Shown one piece after another: positions 470 through 36,937 of a stretch of DNA of 64,000 nt. The first letter of the stretch is position 1, and each line of letters starts with the position of its first letter. The notes under the pieces were generated by a model. It saw only the letters and a program-made list of their open reading frames with translations, did no database searches and was not told the DNA's origin. Made by a program: the position numbers and the translations under genes. Origin of the DNA: Cyanobacteriota bacterium (GTDB lineage: Bacteria; Cyanobacteriota; Cyanobacteriia; Cyanobacteriales; Nostocaceae); NCBI GenBank assembly GCA_046045965.1, contig JBJOKS010000022.1, positions 49,224 to 113,223 of the forward strand, in the 5' to 3' direction.

Positions 470-730
470 TCAATATCCAAAGCGTTGATTTAATGGGTGT
501 GCTGCTCGATCTTTCATTACTTCTTCTAGCATAGCGTCTACTGACTCAGGATCATCAGCAAATAATCCCAGTAAACGGTCCTTTGCTGGTTCTGCTACTG
601 CTAGTTTATCAATTGCATAAGCAACCAACTGTGAAAAGTCTAAATTGTGGGACTTTGCCAAAGTAAGGGCTTTTTCCAGGGTTTTTTGGTCGAGTTGTAG
701 TTCTATTTTTTCTACGTCACATTTTACCAT
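470..730 (-). CDS. Small hypothetical protein, antitoxin-like (EKIELQLD...LLGLFADDPE)
   Basis: 86-aa ORF overlapping the stop of the upstream Phd/YefM gene; RHH-like N-terminus and acidic C-terminus. Confidence 0.5.
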   Translation of the reverse strand: MVKCDVEKIELQLDQKTLEKALTLAKSHNLDFSQLVAYAIDKLAVAEPAKDRLLGLFADDPESVDAMLEEVMKDRAAHPLNQRFGY

Positions 731-1010
731 GAGCTAAACCCTCCAGTGCAGATGTAAAGGCTTCTATACTAACCATTTTAGACTGAGTAAGTGCAACCTC
801 AGCAGATTGACCTAAAACCATATCTTCTAATTCATTCAGCCGATGAATTAATTGTTGGTAGCTTTGGGCTGAGATAATTACATGACTAGGGCGTGATTGT
901 TTGGTGAGTAGAACTGGCTCAGTAGTGGCTTTGTCAAAAACTTCTCCGTGTTGATTGCGAGCATCTGTGAAAGTGTAGGTTTGTATAGCAATTTTGACTA
1001 ATTTCGACAT
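717..1010 (-). CDS. Phd/YefM family antitoxin
   Basis: TYTFTDARNQHGEVFDKA..EPVLLTKQSRPSHVIISAQSYQQL is a typical Phd fold pattern; start placed at ATG 1010. Confidence 0.75.
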   Translation of the reverse strand: MSKLVKIAIQTYTFTDARNQHGEVFDKATTEPVLLTKQSRPSHVIISAQSYQQLIHRLNELEDMVLGQSAEVALTQSKMVSIEAFTSALEGLAHGKM

Positions 1011-1098
1011 TTTGGCTATATTTATTTTAGCAGATGCGATCGCATAACTATAGTCAATGTAGAGATGCAAGTATTATTTCATCAATGGGCTGCTAACT

Positions 1099-2292
1099 TT
1101 AATTTATCCAAAACACCCCCACCTTATCCACCTTTTCCCAAGGTAATTCTATATCACTCCTACCCACATGACCATAAGCAGCAAGCTGACGATAAAAACC
1201 ACCTTTAGTTAATGAAGGTAAAAACCTTAAATTAAATTGTTTAATAATTCCTGCTAACCGAAAATCAAAATGTTTCTCTAAAATTGCCGTTATTTCCTCA
1301 TCAGAAATCTTCCCAGTTCCAAAAGTTTCTACCTGCACACTTACAGGTCGAGAAAGTCCAATAGAATAACTTAACTGCACTTCGCATTCATCAGCTAATT
1401 TAGCAGCAACAACATTTTTAGCAGCATATCTGGCAGCATAAGCCCCAATTCTATCTATTCTCACAGGGTCTTTACCACTTAACGCCGAACCGCTATGTTT
1501 AGAATATTCACCATAGGTATCAATAGCGTTTTTTCTACCTGTTAAACCTGCATGAGTAGTAGGACCACCAATAATAAATCTGCCATCAGGATTAATAAAT
1601 ATTCTAGTTTTAGCATCAGGTTTAATTGCTTCATTTGCAAACACAGGAGCAATCACAGTTTCACGAATATCATCACGTAATTGCTGTAAATCAGGTTTTG
1701 CAGATTGATTTTGACTAGCAATAACTGTAATACTGTGAATTCTATAAGGTCTACGATTTTTATATTCAACACCTACCTGAGTTTTACCATCTGGTGTCAG
1801 ATAGGGGAGGATTTTTTGCTTTCTCACCTCACTAATTTGTCGAGCTAATTTATGTGCTAACCAAATGGGTAAAGGCATAAAATTATAAGTTTGATTGCAA
1901 GCAAAACCAAAAACCGTAGCTTGATTAGTAACAGTAATTTTCTCTATTTCCGCATCAGATAAAATTTTTTCATCAAATAAATGATGTTCTTCAGGAGGCA
2001 ATTCTGTTAAACTAGTTAAAATACTGCAATTTTTACCATTGAATTCCGTTTTGTGATAACCAACTTGTTCAATTACCTGCCTAGCAATATTTGTAAAATC
2101 CACATTAGCACTAGGTTCAAATCTAGCAGCAATAAAAACAATTCCTGTAGACACAGCACATTCTGTAATAATTCTCGCGTAGGGATCTTGTTGTAAAAAC
2201 CTATCTACAATAGCATCACTAATCTGATCACAAAGCTTATCAGGATGCCCTTCCGTAACAGATTCCGACGTAAACATAAAATCCTTTTTCAT
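1099..2292 (-). CDS. metK: Methionine adenosyltransferase (MetK) family protein, divergent paralog
   Basis: FTSESVTEGHPDK, PDGKTQV, GLTGRK, SGKD and AAYGH motifs; start reassigned to MKKDFMFTSE at 2292. Confidence 0.85.
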   Translation of the reverse strand: MKKDFMFTSESVTEGHPDKLCDQISDAIVDRFLQQDPYARIITECAVSTGIVFIAARFEPSANVDFTNIARQVIEQVGYHKTEFNGKNCSILTSLTELPPEEHHLFDEKILSDAEIEKITVTNQATVFGFACNQTYNFMPLPIWLAHKLARQISEVRKQKILPYLTPDGKTQVGVEYKNRRPYRIHSITVIASQNQSAKPDLQQLRDDIRETVIAPVFANEAIKPDAKTRIFINPDGRFIIGGPTTHAGLTGRKNAIDTYGEYSKHSGSALSGKDPVRIDRIGAYAARYAAKNVVAAKLADECEVQLSYSIGLSRPVSVQVETFGTGKISDEEITAILEKHFDFRLAGIIKQFNLRFLPSLTKGGFYRQLAAYGHVGRSDIELPWEKVDKVGVFWIN

Positions 2293-2353
2293 AGAAAAAT
2301 CCTCTCTTTTCTCTGCGTTCTCTGCGCCTCTGCGGTTCGTTACCATCATGATT

Positions 2354-5323
2354 TTAATTGATTTTTTTACTCCCTTCATTAACCAAAAGTGGCAACAAAG
2401 CACCACCAGCAATAACAGCAGCATCTCCTATATTCAATTGTGCAATCTTCAACAAACCCCGTAATTGTGGCACAGTTAAAGCTAAAATTTGAATACCAAA
2501 AGAACCAACAACAGCAGTATTTAAATAAGGATTAGATGGTAATTTTTCTTTACTAAAAATACTGTGTTTTTCAGAACGACTGCTAATAGTATGTAGTAAT
2601 TGCCCTGATGTTAAAGTCATAAAAGCTAAGGTACTAGATTTAGGACTAATTCCATATTTAAAAATACCGTAACCATAAGCAGCTAAGGTACTAATAGATA
2701 TGGCAGCAGATTCAAACACAATTCTGCCGAAATCGGTATTTTTAATAATTTGTTCATTAGGGTTACGAGGAGGTTGATTTAATACGTCTGGTTCTGGTGC
2801 TTCCATAGCTAAAGAAAGTCCAGGGAAAATATCAGTTACTAAGTTCAACCATAGCAGTTGAATTGCGTTTAAAGGTTCACCAATACCCACTGCGGTAGCG
2901 GTTGTCATCACCATAATTTCACTGAGATTTGTAGCTAGGAGAAAATGCACAGATTTTCTGATATTGTTGTAAATTGTTCTGCCTCTACTAACCGCAATCA
3001 TCATTGTTTCTAATCTGTCATCTTCCAGCACGATATCAGCAACTTCACGGGCAACATCTGTACCTTCTTTACCCATTGCTACACCGACTTGGGCAGCTTT
3101 TAATGCTGGTGCGTCATTAATACCATCACCGGTCATAGAGACAACTTTACCCGATGTCTGCAATGCTTGGACAATTTGTAGCTTATTACTAGGACTAATG
3201 CGGGCAAAAACGTCAACTTTGTCGCTGAGTGCTGCTAATGCTTCGGGTGTGAGATTATTGAGGTTATTAGAGTCGAGAATTTCTAATTGAGGATGTCGAT
3301 TTAATTCTAACTCTTTTGCGATCGCATAAGCTGTAGGAGTTTGATCACCAGTAATCATTACCGTATCAATTCCCGCTTGATGAAAGTCTGCAATTAATTC
3401 TTTTGCACCTTTTCTAATTGGATCAGCCATCCCCACCAAACCCAACCAAATTAAATCTGATTCATGATTATTGTTATTTTCTACTTCCTCAATATAACCA
3501 TAAGCTACACCCAAAACTCTTAACGCTTTTCCTGCCAAACGATCATTTTCTATTTCCATCTTTTGCCTATCTTCTGCTGTCAAAGGTACAACTTCACCGT
3601 TGTTGATCCACCGATGACAAATTTGTAAAACTTCCGCAGGATTTCCTTTAACTGCAACCATTTGATGACAATTATGAGTTGAATGAATTGTACTCATGAG
3701 GTTGCGATTTTCTGACCGCAAATTAGTTTGCAATAAAGGATATTTTTCTTTCAATGCCATCACATCTACACCCGCACTAATCGCTGTGTAAATCAAAGAA
3801 TTTTCTGTGGCCGAACCTGTAACTTGATATTCACCATCATGGTTTTGACTAACTTCACTTTCATTACAAAGCACTGCCACGTGAATTAATTTTAATAATT
3901 CATTATAGGTATAGGGATTAATAGATTTTTCCTCTACAATAAATTCACCATCAGTTACTTGAATGTGTTTACTGTCGGTGACAATTTCCACTACAGACAT
4001 TTTATTTTCTGTGAGTGTCCCGGTTTTATCTAAGCAAATTGTTTGCACAGAACCCAAGGCTTCAACTGCATTTAAACTGCGGACAAGAACGTGATTTTTT
4101 CGCATATCACGAATGCCTAAAGCTAGGGTTGTGGTGGCAATTGTTGGTAAACCTTCGGGTACTGCTGCGACTGCTAAAGAGATAGAAGATTGCAAAATTG
4201 CTAATAAATTATATCCTCGTAATATTCCCAAACCAAAGACTAAACCACATAATCCCATGCTAATTAAAACCAGTTGGCTACCCACTTGATCTAATTGTTT
4301 AGCAAGGGGAGTTTGGGTTGTTGTTGCTTCACTTACTAATTGCTGAATCTTGCCCATTTCGGTAAATTTGCCTGTAGCAACTACCGCAGCTATTCCCTGT
4401 CCATTAATTACTAATGTACCTTTATAAATCATATTGATGCGATCAGCTAAAGGCACATCTTCAGCATTTAAAGAAGTAGTAATTTTAGTAACGGGAACAC
4501 TTTCCCCAGTTAAAGCAGATTCATCAATACTTAAATTTTCAGCTTCAACAATTCTCGCATCTGCGGCAATATAGCTACCAGGTTTAAGGACTAAAATATC
4601 TCCTAATACTACATTTTCTGTAGGTATTTCTTGTAAGTTACTATCTCTAATTACCCAGGTTGATTTTTCTGAGCGATTTTTTAGGGAATTAATAATGCGT
4701 TCTGACTGACTTTCTGTAAGATAACCAATGGCAGCATTTAAACCAACTACACCCAAAATTACTACAGCGTCAATAATTCCCCCAGTGAAAATAGAAATTC
4801 CCGCAGCAACACCTAATAAAGCAACTGGTAATGATTTAAACTGCTCAACTAACATACTGATTTCTGAGCGTTTTACTGTTGCTGATAATAGATTTTTACC
4901 ATATTTATTGAGGTGTTTATTGGCAGTTTCACTAGATAATCCTGAAATGTTAGAAGTATTTAATGATTGCAGAACATTATCCGCTGTCCTTAAATGCCAG
5001 TTTTCGGTTTTTTGTTCTTGTTTGGGTACAGTAAATTTATCTTTTTTGGGAATTTTAGCTAATACTTTCACATCATAAAATCCAGCCTTATCTTTATAAT
5101 CTGATAAAGCTTGATCAATGAGATATGCAATTTTTTTATAGCTAACATCCGGTTGAAAAGTTACCAGAATATTACTGGTTAACACATTAGCAGCAACAGA
5201 AAATATTTCTGGGTAACTGGCAAGCGATCGCTCCAAATATATCTTTAATGACTGCGAACGATAAAGTTCATCAATTTTATATCTAGCTCTCCCTTTGACA
5301 CTGTTGTGTATTATTTGAATCAC
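2354..5323 (-). CDS. P-type (P2/HAD-IC) cation-transporting ATPase with N-terminal HMA2-like domain
   Basis: TGES, PEGL, DKTGT, TGD, GDGINDAP and LWLNLVTD motifs; N-terminal IHNSVKGRARYKI. Confidence 0.92.
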   Translation of the reverse strand: MIQIIHNSVKGRARYKIDELYRSQSLKIYLERSLASYPEIFSVAANVLTSNILVTFQPDVSYKKIAYLIDQALSDYKDKAGFYDVKVLAKIPKKDKFTVPKQEQKTENWHLRTADNVLQSLNTSNISGLSSETANKHLNKYGKNLLSATVKRSEISMLVEQFKSLPVALLGVAAGISIFTGGIIDAVVILGVVGLNAAIGYLTESQSERIINSLKNRSEKSTWVIRDSNLQEIPTENVVLGDILVLKPGSYIAADARIVEAENLSIDESALTGESVPVTKITTSLNAEDVPLADRINMIYKGTLVINGQGIAAVVATGKFTEMGKIQQLVSEATTTQTPLAKQLDQVGSQLVLISMGLCGLVFGLGILRGYNLLAILQSSISLAVAAVPEGLPTIATTTLALGIRDMRKNHVLVRSLNAVEALGSVQTICLDKTGTLTENKMSVVEIVTDSKHIQVTDGEFIVEEKSINPYTYNELLKLIHVAVLCNESEVSQNHDGEYQVTGSATENSLIYTAISAGVDVMALKEKYPLLQTNLRSENRNLMSTIHSTHNCHQMVAVKGNPAEVLQICHRWINNGEVVPLTAEDRQKMEIENDRLAGKALRVLGVAYGYIEEVENNNNHESDLIWLGLVGMADPIRKGAKELIADFHQAGIDTVMITGDQTPTAYAIAKELELNRHPQLEILDSNNLNNLTPEALAALSDKVDVFARISPSNKLQIVQALQTSGKVVSMTGDGINDAPALKAAQVGVAMGKEGTDVAREVADIVLEDDRLETMMIAVSRGRTIYNNIRKSVHFLLATNLSEIMVMTTATAVGIGEPLNAIQLLWLNLVTDIFPGLSLAMEAPEPDVLNQPPRNPNEQIIKNTDFGRIVFESAAISISTLAAYGYGIFKYGISPKSSTLAFMTLTSGQLLHTISSRSEKHSIFSKEKLPSNPYLNTAVVGSFGIQILALTVPQLRGLLKIAQLNIGDAAVIAGGALLPLLVNEGSKKIN

Positions 5324-5867
5324 TACTTTGTTGCTCCTGAAATTCCATTGAAACAGTATTAATTGATAAATTCGTTAATTGAGTTTCATCCTCAAAATTC
5401 AATCTGGTAAAAATATCAAAAGCATACCAAGCCAATATATACCAAGGTATTTCTTCTAATTCAAATCCTTTTCTTAACAATTGTCGCAGCGAAAGTAAAC
5501 CTATTGCTAAAGGTAATATTACTCGTAAATCAGCAACACCATTTGTCATTCTCCCCACATCTGCATTAAGATCAGATACTACATTTATAAAATCTTTTGC
5601 TGCTTCTGTTTTACCATTGGTGAACCGGTTTGAATAAGTTCTAGATTTCCAACTTTCTGGTTTTTCCTTTCTAGCATCTGCGGTTGCTTTTTCCACAGTT
5701 TCGCCCATTTCTGCAACTGCATCCTTGACCCTTTCTGATAAAAGAATACTATCTTTAATAGTATTTTGGACTACAGGTTGTTTCATAGCTGACGCAATAG
5801 GTAAAATCACAGGTGAGAAGACTATTGCTGTCAACCCTTCAAAAATAGTGTCTAATGTAGATGCCAT
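5283..5867 (-). CDS. DUF5132-like / HMA2-associated membrane protein
   Basis: N-half PVILP..IKDSILLSERVKDAVAEMGE resembles DUF5132; C-terminal DLRVILPLAIG..IPWYILAWYAFDIF hydrophobic segment. Confidence 0.6.
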   Translation of the reverse strand: MASTLDTIFEGLTAIVFSPVILPIASAMKQPVVQNTIKDSILLSERVKDAVAEMGETVEKATADARKEKPESWKSRTYSNRFTNGKTEAAKDFINVVSDLNADVGRMTNGVADLRVILPLAIGLLSLRQLLRKGFELEEIPWYILAWYAFDIFTRLNFEDETQLTNLSINTVSMEFQEQQSSDSNNTQQCQRES

Positions 5868-6143
5868 TTTTTAACCTCCATTGTGAGTAAGTTATCTAAG
5901 TCAATCAATATAAAAGTGTAATTAAAATTATAACTATTTCCATCATCCTAAAGTCAGAGAAGTATTGGTAAGCAAATAGCAAAATTAAAGCTTATTTTCC
6001 TCTAAAATTATTACTTTAGTAATACACTAGATGGCTTGGTGACTCACATAAGAATTACACCTCTAGACTCATGTAATAGAAACATAAAAACCTTAATACT
6101 AAAAAGGATATTCAATAACTATGACTTACATAAAAATAGTTCC

Positions 6144-6605
6144 ATGACAAATTCAGAAAACCCAAATCAACAAATTCAAACATTGCGTACACTGATTCAA
6201 GATGTTGACTCTGCAATGTTAACCACAGTCGATGATGATGGTAGTTTGCATAGTCGTCCTATGTCTATTTTTAGCGACATTGACACAGATGGTAGACTTT
6301 GGTTTTTTACCTTTGCGAATTCCCATAAAGTATTAGAAATTGAACGTCGTCAACAAGTAAATGTGAGTTTTTCTTCACCTGATCAACAGCGATATGTTTC
6401 CATATCCGGTACAGCAGAACTCGTCAGAGATAGAAATAAATTACAAGAAAAATGGCAACAAAAATTACAAACTTGGTTTCATCATGGAGTAGATGATCCG
6501 AATATTGCTTTGTTGAAGGTGAATATAAACAAAGCAGATTATTGGGAAAGTCCATCAAGTTTTACACCACAAACAATTAGTTTATTAGAACTTTCACACC
6601 GTTAA
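6144..6605 (+). CDS. General stress protein 26 / pyridoxamine 5'-phosphate oxidase-like FMN-binding protein
   Basis: AMLTTVDDDGSLHSRPM, LWFFT, YVSISG, WF..G.DDP, ADYW; start at ATG 6144. Confidence 0.85.
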   Translation: MTNSENPNQQIQTLRTLIQDVDSAMLTTVDDDGSLHSRPMSIFSDIDTDGRLWFFTFANSHKVLEIERRQQVNVSFSSPDQQRYVSISGTAELVRDRNKLQEKWQQKLQTWFHHGVDDPNIALLKVNINKADYWESPSSFTPQTISLLELSHR

Positions 6606-6671
6606 ACTTTAATTTTTCCTAGCCCCTTTTTACCCCTTTTTAAGGGGTATCTCCATGCAAATTAAAATTGA

Positions 6672-6884
6672 TCAGCTTCTAACTTCTCTTTGACTTTGGG
6701 AATGAGTTTTTTCAATATATCCCATTAAGCTTTCCGCCATTTCTACAGACGCAATAATTAATTGCTGTTCCATATTTCCAGAACCTCCCTCATCACTAAC
6801 TTGGGGGTAAATATGAGGATTAGATAGCATCGCAGCCAATAATTGAGATGCAGTCTTTTTCAATTCATCAACTTGTGTATTCAT
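6672..6884 (-). CDS. Small hypothetical protein
   Basis: 70-aa ORF starting 4 nt after the stop of the HPF/CSD gene, probably co-transcribed. Confidence 0.65.
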   Translation of the reverse strand: MNTQVDELKKTASQLLAAMLSNPHIYPQVSDEGGSGNMEQQLIIASVEMAESLMGYIEKTHSQSQREVRS

Positions 6885-6888
6885 TTAT

Positions 6889-7518
6889 CTATTCCTGCCA
6901 ATCTAAAGGCGGTTCAATCATAGTTTCTGATGATTTACCAGCACGAACACCGGGTTTATCAACGATTTTTACAGAGCTTGCTTGGGGTCCTTCTTCACCT
7001 TCTTCTTGAGAAAAATGCACACCCGTACCAATTTCTAAACGGTCAAAATCATTATGTAAAACGCTATTGTGATGGAAATATATTTCCCTACCATCTAAAG
7101 TTTTTAGGAAACCATAGCCATCTTCTCGAAATATTTTAGTGACAAAACCTGTACTTTCTTGTACTTCTTCATATCGGTGAGCTACTTCACTTGCACGTTG
7201 CATTTGCGTAAGTTTAGCTAACTGCTGACGCATAGCATCAAAGGTGTCTCTAATGACTGCATCTAGCGGTTGATATTGAATACCCTCACCAGGATTTTTT
7301 TCCGCTGCTAGTTCATGTCCTGGGGGAACAGTCAGATCAATTCTCACCCGGTAAGGAGAACCACTGCTGGGACGGTCATGAATTTTTTCAATAGCGATAT
7401 GACAGCTATTGATGTAGTTACAAATATTTTCCAGCTTGGCGATTTTTTCGTGAACTAAAGTATCAATTGCATCTGATTTTTCTAGATTACGATAGGTGAT
7501 TTCTGGTTGTATTTTCAT
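6889..7518 (-). CDS. HPF/RaiA family ribosome-associated protein with C-terminal cold-shock domain
   Basis: ITYRNLEKSDAI..KIAKLE..YRVRIDLTVP, then GYGFLKTLDGREIYFHHNSV (CSD RNP motifs). Confidence 0.88.
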   Translation of the reverse strand: MKIQPEITYRNLEKSDAIDTLVHEKIAKLENICNYINSCHIAIEKIHDRPSSGSPYRVRIDLTVPPGHELAAEKNPGEGIQYQPLDAVIRDTFDAMRQQLAKLTQMQRASEVAHRYEEVQESTGFVTKIFREDGYGFLKTLDGREIYFHHNSVLHNDFDRLEIGTGVHFSQEEGEEGPQASSVKIVDKPGVRAGKSSETMIEPPLDWQE

Positions 7519-7753
7519 GCTTTTATAGTCCAAATAGCCAATCTAAATATTTACTTGTTACAAATGCCTTGGTTCTATATTCCATCTAAGTTTATCTTAC
7601 ATTCATTAAACAATTTTAAACAAAAAAATAATGATTTTCCTCTCACTCAGGGTAAGAGATTTTTACTTTAAGTATCTACCTTGAGGATGAGTTGACCAGG
7701 CAATTATTAAGTATTATATTTAAAATGAACTTTGTTGTTATAGAAAACTTAAA

Positions 7754-9049
7754 TTGAATGCAGATTTAATCAGTAGCATAATATGGCTAAGTGGCTGCCT
7801 TATCCTAGTTTTATTTGTACTTGCTTTATTCGTCCTTTATTTAAGGATTTCTTGGTATAAGAAAATCAAGTACAGAATGACAGATGTTCCTAACTTTGAG
7901 GAACCTCATTTTTTTCCAGCAATGATGAGCGTGTCAAATTCACTCATTACTTCTGGTGATCCAGCAAAATTTTGGTTTGATATTGATGCTATTTATACAG
8001 CTAGACTAGAGGCAATTAAATGCGCCCAAAAAACAATTCATTTTGAAACATTTTACATGACTCCTGGGCAGCGGGCTGATGAATTTGCTAGGGCGTTAAT
8101 TGAGCGATCGCAAACAGGTGTAGAAGTCCTCTTTATTGCCGATAGCGTGGGGGTAAACTCAATTTCTACCAACTATTGGCAACGGTTAAAAGCTGGAGGT
8201 GTAGCAGTCCGATTTTTTCATCAATTTAATTGGCAAACTCCCCTCACTTATAACATCCGCACCCACCGCAAATTATTATTAATTGATGGTGAAATTGCTT
8301 TTGTTGGCGGTATGGGTGTTTCTGATCATTGGGATGGTATTATGCCTAAAAATATCACCCCCCCTTGGCTAGATTTAGAGGTTTGCTTTAGTGGGCAAAT
8401 TGTTGTTACTCTAGAAGGAATTTTTATGCAACATTGGTTGTACGAAGGTGGTGTGGCCAGTCTGAGAGCAGAACTGTTTAAAACTCAAGTTGTTGGTGGT
8501 TTAACTATGTTAGTAACACCTAGTAGTTCACCATCTCCTTTTTCTTCTGTCTGCGCTCTTTTTTCTACAGCTTTCCTAGCAGCGAAAAACCGCATTTACA
8601 TTGCTACCCCTTACTTTTTACCTGATAGCAACTCTCGGAGAGCTTTATTAGCAGCAAAACAAAGAGGTGTTGAGATTCGTATTCTGACAATGGGTGCAAA
8701 GAATGATAAAACTTTAGTTTACTATGCAGTCCGTCAAGGTTACGGTGAATTATTAACAGCAGGAATTAAAATATATGAATATCAGCCCAGCATGATGCAC
8801 GCCAAAGTTTTGCTCATTGATGATAATTTTGTTAGTACAGGTAGTGCTAACTTAGATCCCCGCAGTATGTTCCATAATGATGAATTGAATATTTCTTTAT
8901 CTGAGTCTAAATTAGCTCAATTTGTACAACAATTCTTTGTTTATGGTTTCTCTCACAGTCATCAGATAAATATGTCAGAATGGAGAAAGCGCAGTATTTG
9001 GCAAAAGTTTTTAGGTAGATTAACTTTGTCTTTTCGTTGGCAATTATAA
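7754..9049 (+). CDS. cls: Cardiolipin synthase-like phospholipase D family protein
   Basis: Two HxKxxxxD motifs (HRKLLLID, HAKVLLID) and an N-terminal TM helix. Confidence 0.85.
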   Translation: MNADLISSIIWLSGCLILVLFVLALFVLYLRISWYKKIKYRMTDVPNFEEPHFFPAMMSVSNSLITSGDPAKFWFDIDAIYTARLEAIKCAQKTIHFETFYMTPGQRADEFARALIERSQTGVEVLFIADSVGVNSISTNYWQRLKAGGVAVRFFHQFNWQTPLTYNIRTHRKLLLIDGEIAFVGGMGVSDHWDGIMPKNITPPWLDLEVCFSGQIVVTLEGIFMQHWLYEGGVASLRAELFKTQVVGGLTMLVTPSSSPSPFSSVCALFSTAFLAAKNRIYIATPYFLPDSNSRRALLAAKQRGVEIRILTMGAKNDKTLVYYAVRQGYGELLTAGIKIYEYQPSMMHAKVLLIDDNFVSTGSANLDPRSMFHNDELNISLSESKLAQFVQQFFVYGFSHSHQINMSEWRKRSIWQKFLGRLTLSFRWQL

Positions 9050-16892: not shown

Positions 16893-17696
16893 CTATCCGC
16901 GAATACCATTCACATACGCAGATGTCAAATCGTGCTGTGGTTCAGTAAAAATCTGTTCGACTGTACCATACTCGATTAATCTTCCCACTTCTGCTTGTAC
17001 CCAAAATAGGGCAGCGTGATCGCCAATGCGTCTGGCTTGAGCGAGGTTATGGGTGACAATTACCACTGTGTAACGTCCGCGCAGACTAGCAATTAAATCT
17101 TCAACTACGCCGCTAGAAATTGGATCAAGGGCGCTACAAGGTTCATCAAATAATAAAACTTCTGGTTGCAAAACCAAAGCACGGGCAATACATAAACGTT
17201 GCTTTTGTCCACCAGATAAAGATAAAGCTGAAGTATGCAGTCGATCTTTAACTTCGTTCCACAGTCCAACATCTTGGAGTGTGCTTTCAATTAGCCAGTC
17301 TAGTTTCTCACGGTTTTTGATTCCGTGTTCTTGTAGGGGAAAGGCTAAATTCTTCCAAATTGAGAAGGGAAAAGGATTAGGTTTTTGAAAGATTTTACCC
17401 ACACGCCGACGTAAGGCGATCGCATCTACACTGTTATGGAGAATTTCTAAATCATCTAACCGAATACTGCCCGAAATCTTGGTATGAGGAATTAAATCAG
17501 TTAAGCGATTGAGACAACTTAAAAAACTGCTTTTGCCACAGCCAGAAGGTCCCACCAATGCCGTAATTTTACCTGCCTGAATCGGCATGGTGATATCTTT
17601 AAAAGCTGCTTTTTTGCCATAATACAAACTCAGTCCCTCAGTGTACATTGAAGGCAGAGTTGAGGGAGAATTGTGTTTAAATTGAGATTGCTTCAT
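16893..17696 (-). CDS. pstB: Phosphate ABC transporter ATP-binding protein
   Basis: GPSGCGKS, FQKPNPF, LSGGQKQR, DEPCSALDP; ATG at 17696 overlaps the pstA TGA. Confidence 0.93.
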   Translation of the reverse strand: MKQSQFKHNSPSTLPSMYTEGLSLYYGKKAAFKDITMPIQAGKITALVGPSGCGKSSFLSCLNRLTDLIPHTKISGSIRLDDLEILHNSVDAIALRRRVGKIFQKPNPFPFSIWKNLAFPLQEHGIKNREKLDWLIESTLQDVGLWNEVKDRLHTSALSLSGGQKQRLCIARALVLQPEVLLFDEPCSALDPISSGVVEDLIASLRGRYTVVIVTHNLAQARRIGDHAALFWVQAEVGRLIEYGTVEQIFTEPQHDLTSAYVNGIRG

Positions 17697-18538
17697 GTAA
17701 TTCTCCGCGCTAACCAAAATTGGGTTGTCCAAGTTGCCATACCATTCACCAGCAACAATAAAATCAACAGCACTAAAGCAGAAGCGTAGGCGTTAGCATC
17801 CCCACCGGCGACATTCATTGATAAATCGAAAATGTGCAGTGATAGCGATCGCCCGGAATCTAATAACGACTCTGGCATTCGATCTACATAACCACTGGTA
17901 AAAATCAATGCGGCTGTCTCGGCGATCGCCCTACCAATTCCCAGTACCAAACCCACAACTAACCCCGGTGTCGCTGCTGGTAAAAGCAGTTTCCATAATG
18001 TGGTGGTGCGTGATAATCCCAAAGCCGCAGCCCCTAACCGATACTCAGCTGGAACAGCTTGCAGTCCTGCTTCTGCGGAACGAATCAATATCGGCAACAC
18101 CATACAAGCCAAGGTCAAACCACCTGATAAAATCGAAAAACCTAATCCCAACTTAATTGCAAAAAAGGCATTACCAAACAAGCCAAAAACAATGGATGGT
18201 ACTCCTGCTAATACATCCAAACTGCGACGAACTAAACGCCCAAACACACTTTCAGTAGTGGTAAACTCGGCTAACAGTACGGCAGTTCCCACACCCAGGG
18301 GAAGAGAAACTGCTAGACAAACTCCCAATATCAGACAAGTAGAAATCAAGATTGGTGCAATTCCCCCCTCTCGTCCCGCATTTTGCGGTTCAGTGGTTAG
18401 AAATTCCCAGGAAATTTGCCCTGCACCATGCCAGACAATATCACCTAAAATCCAACAAAAAACGGCGGTGACAAATATAGCGATCGCCCACAGAATCAGA
18501 GTAGGTAATAAAATCTGATTTTGTAATTTTTTACCCAT
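17693..18538 (-). CDS. pstA: Phosphate ABC transporter permease
   Basis: GVPSIVFGLFG, GRAIAETAAL; multiple TM helices. Confidence 0.92.
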   Translation of the reverse strand: MGKKLQNQILLPTLILWAIAIFVTAVFCWILGDIVWHGAGQISWEFLTTEPQNAGREGGIAPILISTCLILGVCLAVSLPLGVGTAVLLAEFTTTESVFGRLVRRSLDVLAGVPSIVFGLFGNAFFAIKLGLGFSILSGGLTLACMVLPILIRSAEAGLQAVPAEYRLGAAALGLSRTTTLWKLLLPAATPGLVVGLVLGIGRAIAETAALIFTSGYVDRMPESLLDSGRSLSLHIFDLSMNVAGGDANAYASALVLLILLLLVNGMATWTTQFWLARRIT

Positions 18539-19409
18539 AAATGTCTCTCCTGCTGATCACTTCGGCAATAACCACCAAAGCAGCGATCGCTATCATCAAC
18601 AACAAGCCATTTACAAATAATGCAGAACGGTGATTTCCTGTGGCATAAGCCATTTCTAAGGCAATATTGGCAGTGAGGGTGCGAACAGGGTCAAATATGC
18701 TTTTGGGTGTTTGCACGACATTGCCACAAACCATCAACACTGCCATTGTTTCGCCAATAGCGCGACCTGTTCCTAAAATCAAACCAGTAAATAAACCAGA
18801 TTTAGCAGCAGGTAACACAACACTGCGAATGGTTGACCAGGGAGAAATTCCTAAAGCAGCCGCACCCTGTATATACTCTGTAGGAACTTCTGAAAAACTC
18901 GCTTCTGCTGTTAAGGCGATCGTCGGTAATATCATTAATGTCAAAATAGCAATTCCCGCTAACAGGCTAGTTCCTGGTGCTTGCAATTTGCCAATTAGTG
19001 GTACAAGCACGACCAAACCCCAAAAACCGTAAACTACAGAAGGAATACCTGCCAGTAACTCAATTAACTGCCGATAAAATCTAGTGATCAAAGGAGGTGC
19101 ATAATACTGACAAAATATTGCCGAGCCAATACCTAAAGGTGCAGCAAACATTACAGAACCCAGCGTTACCAACAGACTTCCCCACAGCATCGGCATCAAA
19201 TTATAGAATCCTTCTACCGGATGCCAAGATGGATCTTTTACAAAACGCCACCATCCTAACTGTTGTAATATCGGCAAGGCTTCCAGTAATAAGAATCCTG
19301 TAATTAAGATCACAATTACACCTGTGATCAGAGCTAATCCCCGTAATATCCACAAAAGAAAGATATCACTTTGATATGGGGACAAAATCTTGTTTTTTAA
19401 CAATGTCAT
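18531..19409 (-). CDS. pstC: Phosphate ABC transporter permease
   Basis: ELLAGIPSVVYGFWG, GRAIGETMAV; start position uncertain. Confidence 0.92.
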   Translation of the reverse strand: MTLLKNKILSPYQSDIFLLWILRGLALITGVIVILITGFLLLEALPILQQLGWWRFVKDPSWHPVEGFYNLMPMLWGSLLVTLGSVMFAAPLGIGSAIFCQYYAPPLITRFYRQLIELLAGIPSVVYGFWGLVVLVPLIGKLQAPGTSLLAGIAILTLMILPTIALTAEASFSEVPTEYIQGAAALGISPWSTIRSVVLPAAKSGLFTGLILGTGRAIGETMAVLMVCGNVVQTPKSIFDPVRTLTANIALEMAYATGNHRSALFVNGLLLMIAIAALVVIAEVISRRDIYG

Positions 19410-20220
19410 GAACTTGTGGCGACTGTGCAAACTCAATAAATGCTTGATCTAAGCCTTGGGGCTGGGTTTTAGTAACCAAATTTAGGGAACGGGAAAGGGG
19501 AAATGTCCCATTTTTGACATTCTCTGTAGTGGCGGCAATTCCATTTAGAGGTAATAATTTAATAGGAACGCCGTTGTTAATACTAAATTCAGCCGTACCA
19601 ATTGATACGTAACCAATGGCATTGGGATTACCTGCTACTGTCTTAATTCCCTGCTGGTTATCTCCTATGACAACCGATGATTTAATATCGTTATTTTTGA
19701 GTTGAAAGTAGCTCAGAAACAGTTCTAAAGTAGAACGTCCTTCTGCTTTATTCACAACTGTAATCGGTGCATTTTTGCCGCTAACCTGTTGCCAATTGTT
19801 AATTTTACCAGTGTAAATATCCACAACTTGTTGATTTGACAAGGATTTTACTGGATTATCTTTGTGTAAAATTATGCCAATTCCATCTCTAGCAATTGAA
19901 AAAGCTTGTAGGTCTTTTTCTTCATCTTTGAGGCTACGAGAAATCATCCCAATATTAGCAACGCCTGTACGAGCATCAGCAATACCACGAGATGAACCTC
20001 CGGTTTGTACATCCACTCGCACATCAGGATGCTCTGATTCAAATTGCTTACCAATTTCTGCTACCAACGGTGCTACTGTACTAGAACCTGTTAAAATTAA
20101 CTTTCCTTGCAGCTTGTCGGTTGCTTGAGTAGCTGTTTTTGCAGGTTGTGTGCAAGATTGTAGACCTAAACTAATGGTGGTAGCAACAGTTATAAATGCT
20201 AGTGTGTTAAGTTGTTTCAT
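19366..20220 (-). CDS. pstS: Phosphate-binding lipoprotein
   Basis: Lipobox LQSC; GSSTV, GGSSRG, IARDG, NAIGYVS. Confidence 0.9.
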   Translation of the reverse strand: MKQLNTLAFITVATTISLGLQSCTQPAKTATQATDKLQGKLILTGSSTVAPLVAEIGKQFESEHPDVRVDVQTGGSSRGIADARTGVANIGMISRSLKDEEKDLQAFSIARDGIGIILHKDNPVKSLSNQQVVDIYTGKINNWQQVSGKNAPITVVNKAEGRSTLELFLSYFQLKNNDIKSSVVIGDNQQGIKTVAGNPNAIGYVSIGTAEFSINNGVPIKLLPLNGIAATTENVKNGTFPLSRSLNLVTKTQPQGLDQAFIEFAQSPQVHDIVKKQDFVPISK

Positions 20221-23616: not shown

Positions 23617-26487
23617 ATGTTTCAGCTTTGGGGTTTATTAGTTATTTTAATTACTTGCCCACTCTTAGGGGCAATGCCGCTAATCGCTTGGATTACTTAC
23701 GCTATCAAGCGTCAGCGATTAGCAAAAATTGGTACAGGAAATATTACCGTCTCCGCTGCTTTCTATCACGGTGGTAAACTCGTAGGTATTCTGGCAGTGC
23801 TGTCGGAAGCATTCAAAGGAATTGCAGCGGTATTAATTGCCCGTATTTTCTTTCCTGAAGGTTCATTTTGGGAATTGATAGCTTTGATCGCCTTAGTTAT
23901 CGGTAGATATACTGTAGGTAGAGGTGCAGGAACGACAAACGTAGTTTGGGGATTTTTGATGCACGATCCCCTAATTGCCGGATTTGTCAGTTTAGTAGCA
24001 GCCATTGGTTTTATCATTCTGCGCTCTAAACAAGCGATCAAATATGGGGTTTTGATTTTATTTCCCGTATTTGTAGCAGTCCTGCATTTTAATGATTTTG
24101 CCAAAATTGTCGCTGCCTTTGCATTAGCGGGGTTAATTGGTTGGATTTATCAACAAATCCCCGATGACATGGATCTGCCAGTCGCAGAAGCAGACACAGA
24201 ATCACAACCCATGATGCAATATTTAAGCGGTGGTGAGCAAACGATTATCACTTTGGACGATGAAATAGAACCAGAAGTATTTGGAGCTAAAGCCGCTACA
24301 TTATCGCAAATTAAACGCTGGGGTTATCCAGTGCCAAAAGGATGGATTTTAGCGCCGTTTGATGATCCTGGGATGTTGATTGATTTTCTGCAACCATCAT
24401 CACTTTCACCCTTGGTAGTGCGTTCCTCAGCTATTGGGGAAGACTCAGAACAAGCTTCTGCGGCTGGACAATACGAAACAGTGTTGAATGTTACGAATAA
24501 ACAAGAATTAGAAACAGCGATCGCTCAAGTCCAAGCCTCCTATAATCATCCTGCGGCTGTCCAATATCGGCGCGATCTTGGTGCTAAAGATGCAGCCATG
24601 GCCGTACTCATTCAACCCCAAGTCCAAAGTGTATATTCTGGGGTCGCCTTTAGCCGTGATCCTATCGTCCAACAAGGTGATGCGGTAGTGATTGAAGCAG
24701 TATCAGGAAGTCCTGCACAAGTTGTTTCTGGAAAAATCACACCAGAACAATATCGAGTGTTTGTTGTAGGTGAAGAGAAGTTATCAACTTTACAGTTTGA
24801 GGGAGAAGGAAAAATTCCCCAAGCATTAATTAAGCAAGTAGCGTACCTAGCTCGACGACTAGAAAAACGTTATCATGGCATTCCCCAAGATGTAGAGTGG
24901 AGTTATGACGGACAAACTCTCTGGGTATTGCAAGCAAGACCAATTACCACCCTCCTACCACTTTGGACAAGGAAAATAGCCGCTGAAGTCATTCCCGGTG
25001 TGATTCATCCCTTAACTTGGTCGATTAATTTACCCTTAACTTGTGGGATGTGGGGTGAACTGTTTACTTTAGTTTTAGGCGATCGCTCTCGTGATTTAGA
25101 TTTTACCAAAATGGCGACGCTGCATTACTCTAGAGCCTATTTTAATGCTTCTTTCTTAGGGGAAGTTTTTCTAGAAATGGGTTTACCGCCAGAAAGTTTG
25201 GATTTTTTAACTAGAGGTGCAAAAATGAGTAAACCCCCTCTAGCTTCAACTTGGGAGAATTTACCAGGACTGACAAAGCTGCTACAGCGAGAAATCAGCT
25301 TAGAAAAGGAATTTAAGCAGGATTATCGCACAAGGTTTATTCCTGGGTTGACAAAATTAGCAAATGAACTAATTGAGGAATTATCAGCACCTCAGTTATT
25401 AGGCCGAATTGACTTGATTCTCGATTTGCTCAACCAAGGTACTTACTACAGTATTTTATCTCCCTTGAGTGCTGCCATCCGTCAAGCAGTTTCTGGGGTG
25501 AAGGATGAAAAAATTGATCATAGTATCACTCCCGAAATTTCATCATTGCGATCGCTGAGAATTTTAGCCGCAGATGCCAAAGAAATATTACCTGAGTTTG
25601 ACCCAGGGAGAGTTTTTGAAGACTTGGCGCAAACTCCAGAAGGTGAAAGGATTTTGGATGATTTTGCCGAAATACTGGAAGATTACGGTTATTTAAGTGA
25701 GGTAGGAACTGATATTTCTGTACCCACCTGGAAAGAACAGCCTCACCTAGTCAAACAATTGTTTATCCAGTTCATGGAAACAAGTGAACCAGCAAATGGG
25801 GATGACTCCAGAAAGCGTCAGCAAGGTTTTGTCCAAAGCCGTGTGGATCTTAAAGGAAGAGTCACAGAAGTTTATTCTCGCTTGTTAGCTGAATTGCGCT
25901 GGACTTTTTTAGCTTTAGAAAAGATTTGGCTGCAAAATGGTTTATTACAACAAACGGGGGATATCTTCTTTTTAAGATTGGGTGAAGTGCGACGTTTAGC
26001 CGCAAATGCTGATCCAGAACTAAGAAATCAACTTTCAGCATTATTGCAAAAACGGCGATCGCAATTTCTCCAAGATAGCCAAATTACTCAAATTCCCCCT
26101 CTAGTTTATGGCAACAATCCCCCCCATCCTATCGCCTCTCCAATAGATACCTCTGACCATATCTTACTAGGCATTCCCGCCAGTCAAGGACAAGCCGCAG
26201 GACAAGTTAAGGTGGTGAGAAATTTACAGGAAGTAGGCGAAATTAATAAGGGGACAATTCTTGTCGTACCTTATACAGATTCCGGTTGGGCTACCATCTT
26301 AGTCAGGGCAGGAGGAGTCATAGCCGAAGCTGGTGGTAAACTTTCTCATGGGGCGATAGTTGCCCGTGAATACGGTATTCCCGCAGTCATGGATGTACGA
26401 GGTGCTACCTATCTGCTCCAGGATGGTCAACAAGTACGCATTGATGGTTCTAAAGGAATTGTCGAACTAGAGGAATTTTTAGCCTAA
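23617..26487 (+). CDS. PlsY-like membrane domain fused to PEP/pyruvate-binding (ATP-grasp) and phosphohistidine swivel domains
   Basis: GTGNITVS..EAFKG (PlsY-like); GAKAATL, VRSSA.GED..SAAGQY, DVEW, LQARPIT; GGKLSHGAIVAREYGIPAV. Confidence 0.85.
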   Translation: MFQLWGLLVILITCPLLGAMPLIAWITYAIKRQRLAKIGTGNITVSAAFYHGGKLVGILAVLSEAFKGIAAVLIARIFFPEGSFWELIALIALVIGRYTVGRGAGTTNVVWGFLMHDPLIAGFVSLVAAIGFIILRSKQAIKYGVLILFPVFVAVLHFNDFAKIVAAFALAGLIGWIYQQIPDDMDLPVAEADTESQPMMQYLSGGEQTIITLDDEIEPEVFGAKAATLSQIKRWGYPVPKGWILAPFDDPGMLIDFLQPSSLSPLVVRSSAIGEDSEQASAAGQYETVLNVTNKQELETAIAQVQASYNHPAAVQYRRDLGAKDAAMAVLIQPQVQSVYSGVAFSRDPIVQQGDAVVIEAVSGSPAQVVSGKITPEQYRVFVVGEEKLSTLQFEGEGKIPQALIKQVAYLARRLEKRYHGIPQDVEWSYDGQTLWVLQARPITTLLPLWTRKIAAEVIPGVIHPLTWSINLPLTCGMWGELFTLVLGDRSRDLDFTKMATLHYSRAYFNASFLGEVFLEMGLPPESLDFLTRGAKMSKPPLASTWENLPGLTKLLQREISLEKEFKQDYRTRFIPGLTKLANELIEELSAPQLLGRIDLILDLLNQGTYYSILSPLSAAIRQAVSGVKDEKIDHSITPEISSLRSLRILAADAKEILPEFDPGRVFEDLAQTPEGERILDDFAEILEDYGYLSEVGTDISVPTWKEQPHLVKQLFIQFMETSEPANGDDSRKRQQGFVQSRVDLKGRVTEVYSRLLAELRWTFLALEKIWLQNGLLQQTGDIFFLRLGEVRRLAANADPELRNQLSALLQKRRSQFLQDSQITQIPPLVYGNNPPHPIASPIDTSDHILLGIPASQGQAAGQVKVVRNLQEVGEINKGTILVVPYTDSGWATILVRAGGVIAEAGGKLSHGAIVAREYGIPAVMDVRGATYLLQDGQQVRIDGSKGIVELEEFLA

Positions 26488-35586: not shown

Positions 35587-35645
35587 ACCCTACACCCTAC
35601 ACCCTACACCCTACACCCTACACCCTACACCCTACACCCTACACC
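35587..35645. repeat. STRR (ACCCTAC)n overlapping the response regulator stop codon
   Basis: Tandem heptamers. Confidence 0.9.
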
Positions 35646-36352
35646 TGGTCTTCTTGTGGCTCAGTAGTACATTCAAACTTGTAACCTACACCGCGTACAG
35701 TCTGAATTAATGCTGGTTGACTAGCATCAATTTCAATTTTCTTGCGAATTTGACCGATGTGAACATCAACAACTCGCTGATCGCCTACATATTCATAGTC
35801 CCAAACCTCTTGTATAAGTTCTGCTCGCCGCCAAACTCGACCTGGATGACTGGCTAAAAAATGTAACAAATCAAATTCTAAAGCAGTCAACGGTACTGGT
35901 TCGTCATTAAGTGTTACTTCCCTACGAACCGGATCAATCATCAGCTTGGTAAAAATGAGGCGTTTTTGTTCGGCAGTAGTAACCACCCGCTGTCGCCTTA
36001 AAATCGCTGCCACTCTGACCTCTAGCTCTCCCAAACCAAACGGCTTGGTGAGATAATCATCAGCGCCTTTAGAAAAACCGCGAATTTTATCGGCTTCATC
36101 TGTGCGACTCGTGAGCATCAGCACAAAAACACCATTCCGGCTTTGCATTTCTTGGCACAGGTTAAAGCCAATGGCATCTGGTAAATTTACATCTAGAATT
36201 ACCAAGTCTGGGTTAAATTGCTCAAAAACAGCTAAGGCAGCCTTACCATCTTCAGCAGCTTCTACTTGATAGTTCTGTTTGATCAAAAAGCGTTGGATTA
36301 AATTCCGAACGGCTGGGTCGTCATCAACTACAAGAATCTTGGCGGGAGCCAT
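35639..36352 (-). CDS. OmpR-family response regulator
   Basis: ILVVDDD, LVILDVNLP, GADDYLTKPF, VDVHIGQIRKK, TVRGVGY. Confidence 0.93.
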   Translation of the reverse strand: MAPAKILVVDDDPAVRNLIQRFLIKQNYQVEAAEDGKAALAVFEQFNPDLVILDVNLPDAIGFNLCQEMQSRNGVFVLMLTSRTDEADKIRGFSKGADDYLTKPFGLGELEVRVAAILRRQRVVTTAEQKRLIFTKLMIDPVRREVTLNDEPVPLTALEFDLLHFLASHPGRVWRRAELIQEVWDYEYVGDQRVVDVHIGQIRKKIEIDASQPALIQTVRGVGYKFECTTEPQEDQV

Positions 36353-36937
36353 GACCATTACTTTGCACAAAAATTCATTATGATTAACGGGGGAATTGCG
36401 TAGGAACGCATTTTCAACTTTGGCGGTACTTAAGAATCTACAAGGTGTAGGTACGAGTATCCTGATTGTTCAAATAAACTGTAATTACAATTATGAACGA
36501 TGTTGGCACTAATCTTCTGTTCATCAGTCCGGTGCTTAAGTATATCACTATATACATCCAGAGATTGTTTGGACTCAGTTTGTAGCTTTTTGTTTAAATT
36601 TGGATAATGTGTACTCGGTGGAACAGCAATTTAAAACGTTCTAATTGTAAATCAATATGCAAATTTATACCATAAAATAAATAAGGTAATTATAATTCGG
36701 GGATAAAACTCTAATTGCTAAACCATAGGGGAATATATGTTTTGCAATACTGTGTGATGACAATATGTTAAAGTAACTGAAGTGAAAATTCTTGGGTCGA
36801 ACCAACTCAGCCGTGCTAATATCCTGATTAAAGGATAATAATCGGCCGAACCCATTGTTTCGATTACAATAAAAAATAAGGTTGTTTTTTCTTCAACAAA
36901 AGACTGCCGCTTACTAAGGCCGAAGTAATAAACTGCC

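Follow-up and report, generated by a model that had tools for sequence, protein, structure and literature searches.

The gene at positions 1099 to 2292 of the window analysed here (the whole 64,000-nucleotide stretch of DNA, from a genome of the Nostocaceae) encodes a paralog of the S-adenosylmethionine (SAM) synthase MetK with a rebuilt methionine pocket. We favour, with slightly better than even confidence, the view that this protein is not a SAM synthase and would instead act as a soluble, MetK-derived accessory subunit, binding a phosphate ligand, of the P2A-type cation pump encoded directly upstream. The features on which the argument draws are the following, in window coordinates:

5283..5867, minus strand: protein of 194 aa with a DUF5132 domain; its gene runs 41 bp past the pump start
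2354..5323, minus strand: cation ATPase of 989 aa, P2A type (resembling SERCA and LMCA1), with intact catalytic motifs and Ca site II
within 2354..5323, minus strand: weak N-terminal HMA_2 (CoBaHMA-type) match of the pump, from the domain search
3716..3718, minus strand: pump R536, replacing the N-domain Phe (SERCA F487 position), aligned without gaps to LMCA1
2293..2353, minus strand: gap of 61 bp separating pump and paralog; contains a ribosome-binding site and a repeat (2313-2339)
~2300-2305, minus strand: ribosome-binding site of the paralog, upstream of its start
1099..2292, minus strand: MetK-fold paralog, 397 aa, triphosphate/Mg/K residues retained, methionine pocket basic (R57, H247, R278)
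2122..2124, minus strand: R57 of the paralog, replacing E. coli E55
1552..1554, minus strand: H247 of the paralog, replacing D238
1459..1461, minus strand: R278 of the paralog, replacing K269

The paralog is read from the minus-strand frame running from 2292 to 1099, the plus strand being rich in stops and closed. In the profile search it scored 409.8 bits against TIGR01034, for which the cut-off is 309.4, and all three MAT Pfam domains (PF00438, PF02772 and PF02773) were found in it. The predicted structure (pLDDT 91.2, pTM 0.92) matched the solved MAT 7R3B with a TM-score of 0.88 in the fold search, so that the paralog combines the three-domain MAT fold with the profile match; among the matches listed, 77/77 members of its subfamily likewise match TIGR01034 at E <= 1e-20. 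A look-up in the ESM Atlas, which covered names and was made without a structure search, returned only clusters named SAM synthase. The possibility of a drifting pseudogene was ruled out by the open frame, a dN/dS of about 0.08 and the fixed substitutions described below.

Residues were compared with those of E. coli MetK (from NC_000913.3, mature numbering) in a MAFFT alignment. The paralog retains E8, H14, D16, K17, E42, D163, K165, R244, K245, K265 and D271, and the triphosphate/Mg/K set (H14, D16, E42, R244, K245, K265 and D271) is therein complete. We take D16, E42, D118, K165, R244, K245, K265 and D271 to be the metal- and triphosphate-binding positions of MATs. The substitutions are E55 to R57, Q98 to L98, S99 to P99, I102 to E, D118 to N123, D238 to H247, G258 to S, G260 to S, F262 to L and K269 to R278; at the level of motifs, G54-E55 becomes A56-R57, Q98-S99 becomes L98-P99, G117-D118 becomes T122-N123 and GGGAF becomes SGSAL. 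Every motif change listed in an earlier, sequence-only reading of this DNA was borne out by the alignment. According to the accessible parts of PMC3853416, PMC1282579 and PMC8727953, E55 and D238 contact the amino group of methionine, Q98 and K269 its carboxylate, and I102 its side chain, while D163, R229, F230 and S99 contact adenosine; D238 is listed as a contact of both the methionine amino group and the ribose. Hence the methionine contacts E55, Q98, D238 and K269 are all absent from the paralog (R57, L98, H247 and R278), and among the adenosine contacts this copy has kept D163, R229 and F230 but lost S99, together with I102 of the gating loop.

These changes are a property of a whole subfamily. 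R57, H247 and R278 occur in 120/120 rows (the query and its 119 closest matches), and therefore represent neither chance nor decay. In a wider set of 73 near-full-length proteins, counted at the positions that the DNA search pattern does not preset and limited to the matches listed, D16, K17, E42 and K265 are present in 73/73 each, H14 in 69 (N in 4), D163 in 68 and K165 in 55, and position 271 is D in 69 and E in 4. Within the same set, the E55 position is R in 63, H in 7, K in 2 and Q in 1, and is thus basic in 72, the K269 position is R in 72 and the F262 position is L in 72. R244 and K245 are preset by the pattern, yet both occur in 120/120 of the close rows, which are pattern-free. Conversely, D118 is kept in 13 of the 73 listed proteins and F230 in 34, the gating loop is unconserved, and so are the adenosine-side residues S99, I102 and S186-H189. 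As judged from these alignments, the subfamily is one in which the triphosphate/metal half of the site has been retained, the methionine pocket has exchanged its acidic charge for a basic one, and the adenosine side has been relaxed. The earlier claim that the ATP site had been kept accordingly stands for the triphosphate/metal half and falls for the adenosine side (S99, I102, R229, F230 and S186-H189). Similarly, a GRF motif described as intact is so in this copy but not family-wide (R229 in 5/120 close rows, F230 in 34/73 wider members), and since R229 and F230 vary across the subfamily, that observation was incidental.

A profile search over 50%-identity representatives recovered this signature in proteins as distant as about 40% identity, with H238 or R/H55 in 31/150 rows listed, one or two of them misaligned, and a DNA pattern built on the H238 motif found at least 120 stretches in GTDB genomes, all of them MetK-like. 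Carriers among the matches listed belong to Cyanobacteriota, Thermodesulfobacteriota, Nitrospirota, Pseudomonadota, Acidobacteriota and Actinomycetota, with one Polyangiales genome, which places the subfamily in at least six phyla. Within the Cyanobacteriota its distribution is patchy, the paralog being present in 14 of 251 genomes at an identity of at least 71%. Five representatives (P0159, P0163, P0171, P0219 and P0235) are divergent MetK-like proteins with other pocket changes, outside the subfamily signature. In a quick tree with a midpoint root, one branch (SH-aLRT 100) parts 50 subfamily rows from 36 canonical rows, and the paralog does not group with the canonical MetKs, bacterial MetK and the subfamily sharing about 44-50% identity. 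A 7-residue C-terminal insertion is common to the subfamily and the Cyanobacteriota MetKs examined (16/16, a biased sample, picked as the best-scoring canonical matches), whereas 74/94 canonical representatives have the E. coli length there, without the insertion. This shared insertion suggests that the subfamily may have arisen by duplication of a Cyanobacteriota-type metK. Purifying selection acts on the subfamily: dN/dS against relatives was 0.07-0.11 in 11 pairs and 0.04 in one saturated pair (12/13 pairs computed, one pair of unequal length being left out).

The paralog as sole metK of its genome was ruled out by a canonical MetK at G000:C2:195965-197239, which retains E55, Q98, D118, D238 and K269. 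All 14 cyanobacterial carriers hold a second MetK match, as do 42 of 45 other carriers among the matches listed, the remaining three having one match; these 45 were picked from H238-pattern matches, their completeness is not given, and second copies were counted by match and not by residues. Three non-cyanobacterial genomes (G262:C15, G258 and G265) have three MetK-family genes each, possibly including two paralog copies. With a canonical copy present and four methionine-contact residues replaced family-wide, the earlier statement that this is not the housekeeping SAM synthase is supported. Overall, the paralog resembles bacterial MetK (EC 2.5.1.6; TIGR01034; E. coli 1RG9, 1P7L) in its fold and its triphosphate and metal residues, and differs from it in having other residues at E55, Q98, D238, K269, S99 and I102 and another gating loop, and in being a non-essential second copy, patchy in distribution (14/251 genomes) and linked to a pump.

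We then turned to that pump. Its best PDB match is LMCA1, and it does not reach the curated cut-off of either TIGR01522 or TIGR01116. Motifs for phosphorylation, dephosphorylation and Ca site II are present across 64 such pumps: DKTGT, TGE, PEGL, N799, E802, N827 and D831 occur in 64/64, as do E390, N827 and D831 of site II, and the partner pump also retains TGES and TGDGxND. The M8 glutamate position is Gln in 56/64 pumps, a Glu-to-Gln change also seen in the window's pump. Site II is, according to the accessible part of PMC11468904, the site conserved among Ca-ATPases, and because its residues are retained the transported ion would most likely be Ca2+ (or Mn2+). The partner pump thus shares its motifs and site II with P2A Ca-ATPases (Listeria LMCA1, SERCA, SPCA1 and the cyanobacterial PacL type), but is set apart by an HMA_2/CoBaHMA domain, the M8 Gln, an N-domain Arg and a soluble partner gene; no description of a dedicated soluble partner of P2A Ca-ATPases was found in the literature compared.

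The earlier suggestion that the paralog might be a partner of the upstream ATPase is supported well by gene linkage, and weakly by complex prediction (see below). The pump lies directly upstream of the paralog on the same strand in 14/14 cyanobacterial loci and in 78/78 wider loci having upstream DNA, among the matches listed. Of the 80 wider loci with flanks (a further 40 had none), 76 were scored directly, two end at a contig edge, and in two an extra pump confused the script, the gene map giving the same order. A pump ortholog occurs in 16/251 genomes, and for two of these 16 our query found no paralog, either beside the pump or elsewhere; the dependence is therefore one-way, as expected for an accessory part. 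The correlation of pump and paralog distances (mirror-tree r = 0.89) reflects shared history and was not counted as co-evolution. The DUF5132 gene, found in 9/14 cyanobacterial loci, is probably the first gene of the operon. As described in the accessible parts of bioRxiv 10.1101/2024.07.07.602159 and PMC8890360, HMA_2 corresponds to CoBaHMA, which adjoins DUF5132 beside calcyanin in Microcystis; that ccyA neighbourhood thus shares the CoBaHMA and DUF5132 families and a calcium context with the paralog locus, but its transporter is a Ca/H antiporter rather than a P2A pump. The words "methionine" and "metK" have 0 occurrences in the main text of bioRxiv 10.1101/2024.07.07.602159.

The pump's nucleotide pocket has changed as well. 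In SERCA, the ATP cleft is formed by E442, F487, R489, K515, R560 and L562 according to the accessible part of PMC7313052, and this numbering was transferred to the pump through LMCA1 and known motifs. LMCA1 and the other P2A pump of this genome have Phe at the position of R536, whereas in 77 partner pumps among the matches listed this Arg is invariant (77/77) and the next Lys is kept in 4/77. In the same listed pumps, the equivalents of E442, K515 and R560 occur in 77/77 and that of L562 in 76/77, the R489 position is E in 63/77, and position 542 is aromatic in 47/77. In a scan anchored on the pump (TGDQ motif; 80/120 loci with flanks; at least 400 bp of downstream DNA required, leaving 10 short loci uncounted), the paralog was found downstream in 24/26 Arg pumps versus 0/31 Phe/Tyr pumps, and in 2/13 other pumps, these two having their N domain beyond the locus ends. 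His occupies position 238 in all 26 paralogs reached through the pump, a result free of the circularity of the H238 pattern. Nevertheless, the Arg pumps lie on one side of a single branch (support 98), and their association with the paralog therefore amounts to one observation and not 24. Arg pumps without a paralog behind them (L167:43-3153 and L168:7055-9796, cyanobacterial, and L172, metagenomic) are nested among paralog-bearing ones; the branches of L168 and L172 are long (0.58 and 0.57), possibly through relaxation after partner loss, and L168 is without the N-terminal HMA_2 part.

Pump residues 196-795 and a paralog monomer were folded together from paired 77-row alignments. The complex scored 0.54, against 0.00 for the best of three controls, a result graded weak by the tool, and the runs agreed in at least 92% of contacts with a partner pLDDT of at least 85. 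The mark for a complex was reached by 116/157 solved complexes and by 2/215 mismatches; at scores up to 0.60, 18 solved complexes and both mismatches passed, so that 0.54 falls in the range of both false passes, and it was obtained for the monomer of a dimeric protein, with no interface given. The fold-search matches listed held no MAT-pump complex. Given the weak score, a prior guess that contact is likely, and the lack of such a complex among those matches, we regard direct binding of the paralog to the pump as moderately probable on the basis of this model.

If the paralog is an accessory pump subunit, it would form a MAT-type dimer and bind a phosphate-rich anion, whether ATP through its triphosphate, inorganic tri- or pyrophosphate, or a longer chain of polyphosphate extending into the basic pocket; it is the charge of the pocket that points to this class of ligand. 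Perhaps it would slowly hydrolyse the bound anion through inherited tripolyphosphatase chemistry; as K165 is kept in 55/73 and H14 in 69/73 wider members, any catalysis may not be universal. The protein would dock on the cytoplasmic A/N/P head of the pump, and docking would tune pump turnover, in whichever direction, to the phosphate or energy state of the cell. In KefF-KefC, SbtB-SbtA and GlnK-AmtB, a soluble ligand-binding protein is encoded beside a transporter and regulates it, as we propose for the paralog; their folds are unrelated to it, and the transporters are secondary transporters or channels, not P-type pumps.

The foremost alternative, to which we give a modest share of belief, is that the paralog is a stand-alone tripolyphosphatase or short-chain polyphosphatase, working in the same pathway as the pump without touching it, e.g., by mobilising Ca-polyphosphate stores. 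The residues it retains are those of the MAT triphosphate step, the added basic residues would fit a longer phosphate chain, and 9/80 loci among the matches listed have pst, phn or phoH genes at a distance of up to 8 kb, a count without a background control. However, contact is the better fit to the fixed order behind the pump across phyla, to the change that the pump's nucleotide pocket underwent in parallel, and to the weak pass of the complex prediction.

It is rather doubtful that the paralog is an adenosyltransferase with an anionic acceptor (a keto- or hydroxy-acid thioether or a phosphorylated group) that yields a signal or modifies the pump. H14, D163, K165 and the metal site are retained in this copy, and an acceptor without an amino group would suit the basic pocket. 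On the other hand, the gating loop, S99, I102, R229, F230 and S186-H189 are unconserved and H14 is N in 4/73 wider members. Nor did a methyltransferase or other SAM consumer recur in the loci, one methyltransferase family being present in 2/80 among the matches listed; the supply of SAM to a biosynthetic or methylation cluster was ruled out on the same grounds. Adenosylation of a different acceptor, also raised in the sequence-only reading, is therefore the weaker of its two branches.

Less probable still is a switch of fuel, in which the phosphoryl group of the pump would come from a nucleotide other than ATP or from inorganic tri- or polyphosphate, the paralog binding, making or handing over the donor and both nucleotide sites having been rebuilt for it. 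In pump and paralog alike, aromatics that stack on adenine have gone and Arg has come in (F230 persists in only 34/73 paralogs; in the pumps the F487 position is R in 77/77, with the next Lys in only 4/77), and the accessible part of PMC7313052 places F487 in the ATP cleft. Yet four of the six cleft residues are retained (E442, K515 and R560 in 77/77, L562 in 76/77), the aromatic residue at position 542 (47/77) could take over stacking, and the Arg stays in pumps without a paralog. An extension of the same idea, and one that we put forward with equally little confidence, is that a P-type pump phosphorylated from inorganic tri-/polyphosphate or another non-ATP donor through a bound MetK-derived subunit loads calcium into a store of the polyphosphate type that the CoBaHMA and DUF5132 proteins help to build. 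If so, no earlier case is known to us of a MAT-fold protein with a job other than SAM synthesis, or of a P-type pump that has a phosphoryl-donor subunit dedicated to it.

That the paralog is a divergent but working SAM synthase, the second metK of database annotations, is also improbable: it passes the TIGR01034 cut-off with the same fold, 3/45 carriers have no other MetK match, and the fold of archaeal MATs (T. kodakarensis, P. furiosus) tolerates other methionine contacts, but in the accessible part of PMC3853416 those enzymes, the SAM synthases of their cells, retain the Asp equivalent to D238 that is His here, the subfamily is of bacterial-type descent, the same genome carries a canonical copy, the linkage is to a pump and not to SAM users, and the methionine ammonium should be repelled because both amino-binding acids, E55 and D238, became basic.

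Recurrent neighbours of the pump and paralog are HMA_2, DUF5132, a helical protein (17 loci), Usp, MgtE, CorA, Na/Ca exchanger and cation-efflux genes, and in Nostocales loci the flanking genes resemble general-stress genes. In the window, stress-type neighbours occupy 6036-9049 (a PNPOx-like protein, an S30AE/cold-shock-domain fusion and a cardiolipin synthase-like PLD protein). The intergenic region 5868-6120 is shared with a divergent pyridoxamine-oxidase-like gene of the general stress type and contains short blocks conserved in four relatives, e.g., a GGTGTAATT-like stretch; from their conservation, these are a possible promoter or regulator site. Farther away lie a pstSCAB phosphate ABC operon (16893-20220, minus strand, about 11 kb from the pump-paralog operon), a PEP-synthase/Rph-like protein of the pyruvate phosphate dikinase family that falls below all cut-offs (23617-26487, plus strand), a gene for a PhoB/RpaB-type regulator (35639-36370) and a fused PTS enzyme I/DhaM-like protein (37671-40166, minus strand). 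Downstream of the paralog, after 28 bp, a Phd/YefM antitoxin and a small DUF6364-like gene (470-1070, minus strand) follow; the small gene is followed by a PIN-like one in L036 and L037, two relatives, and since no homolog of the L037 PIN-like gene was found in this genome, the pair may be an orphaned toxin-antitoxin remnant.

Regarding regulation, Pho boxes in this genome numbered 173 matches against 163 expected, and in 64 wider loci among the matches listed 4 against 0.8 expected, a weak enrichment. An SphR-type box was not above shuffles in 12/13 cyanobacterial upstream regions (p = 0.04 in the other), and no NtcA signal was found in those 13 regions. A single RNA run gave short partial matches only, mostly on the intergenic repeat, a CGCAGAG-type dispersed element at 2313-2339, between pump and paralog, with 51 genome copies at up to three mismatches.

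No description of a MetK-like, pump-linked family was found in the literature covered, namely the main texts of mostly open papers, and the accessible parts of bioRxiv 10.1101/716472, bioRxiv 10.64898/2025.12.07.689555 and PMC3604715 hold no passage relevant to it. The cultured strain Trichormus variabilis ATCC 29413 carries the paralog, and Chlorogloeopsis fritschii PCC 6912 the pump and paralog pair; as both proteins occur in cultured strains, the pump-partner idea is directly testable. MetK is regarded as a single-function, nearly invariant enzyme, and the paralog subfamily would depart from that. Because its members pass the metK cut-off and yet lack the usual means of binding methionine, the label "second metK" is probably mistaken in many cyanobacteria, sulfate reducers, Nitrospirota and proteobacteria. 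Altogether, our results suggest a bacterial pump of the calcium type that has a changed nucleotide pocket and is regulated by a soluble subunit, and if the paralog is indeed a regulator, it would link the phosphate or energy state of the cell to cation pumping.
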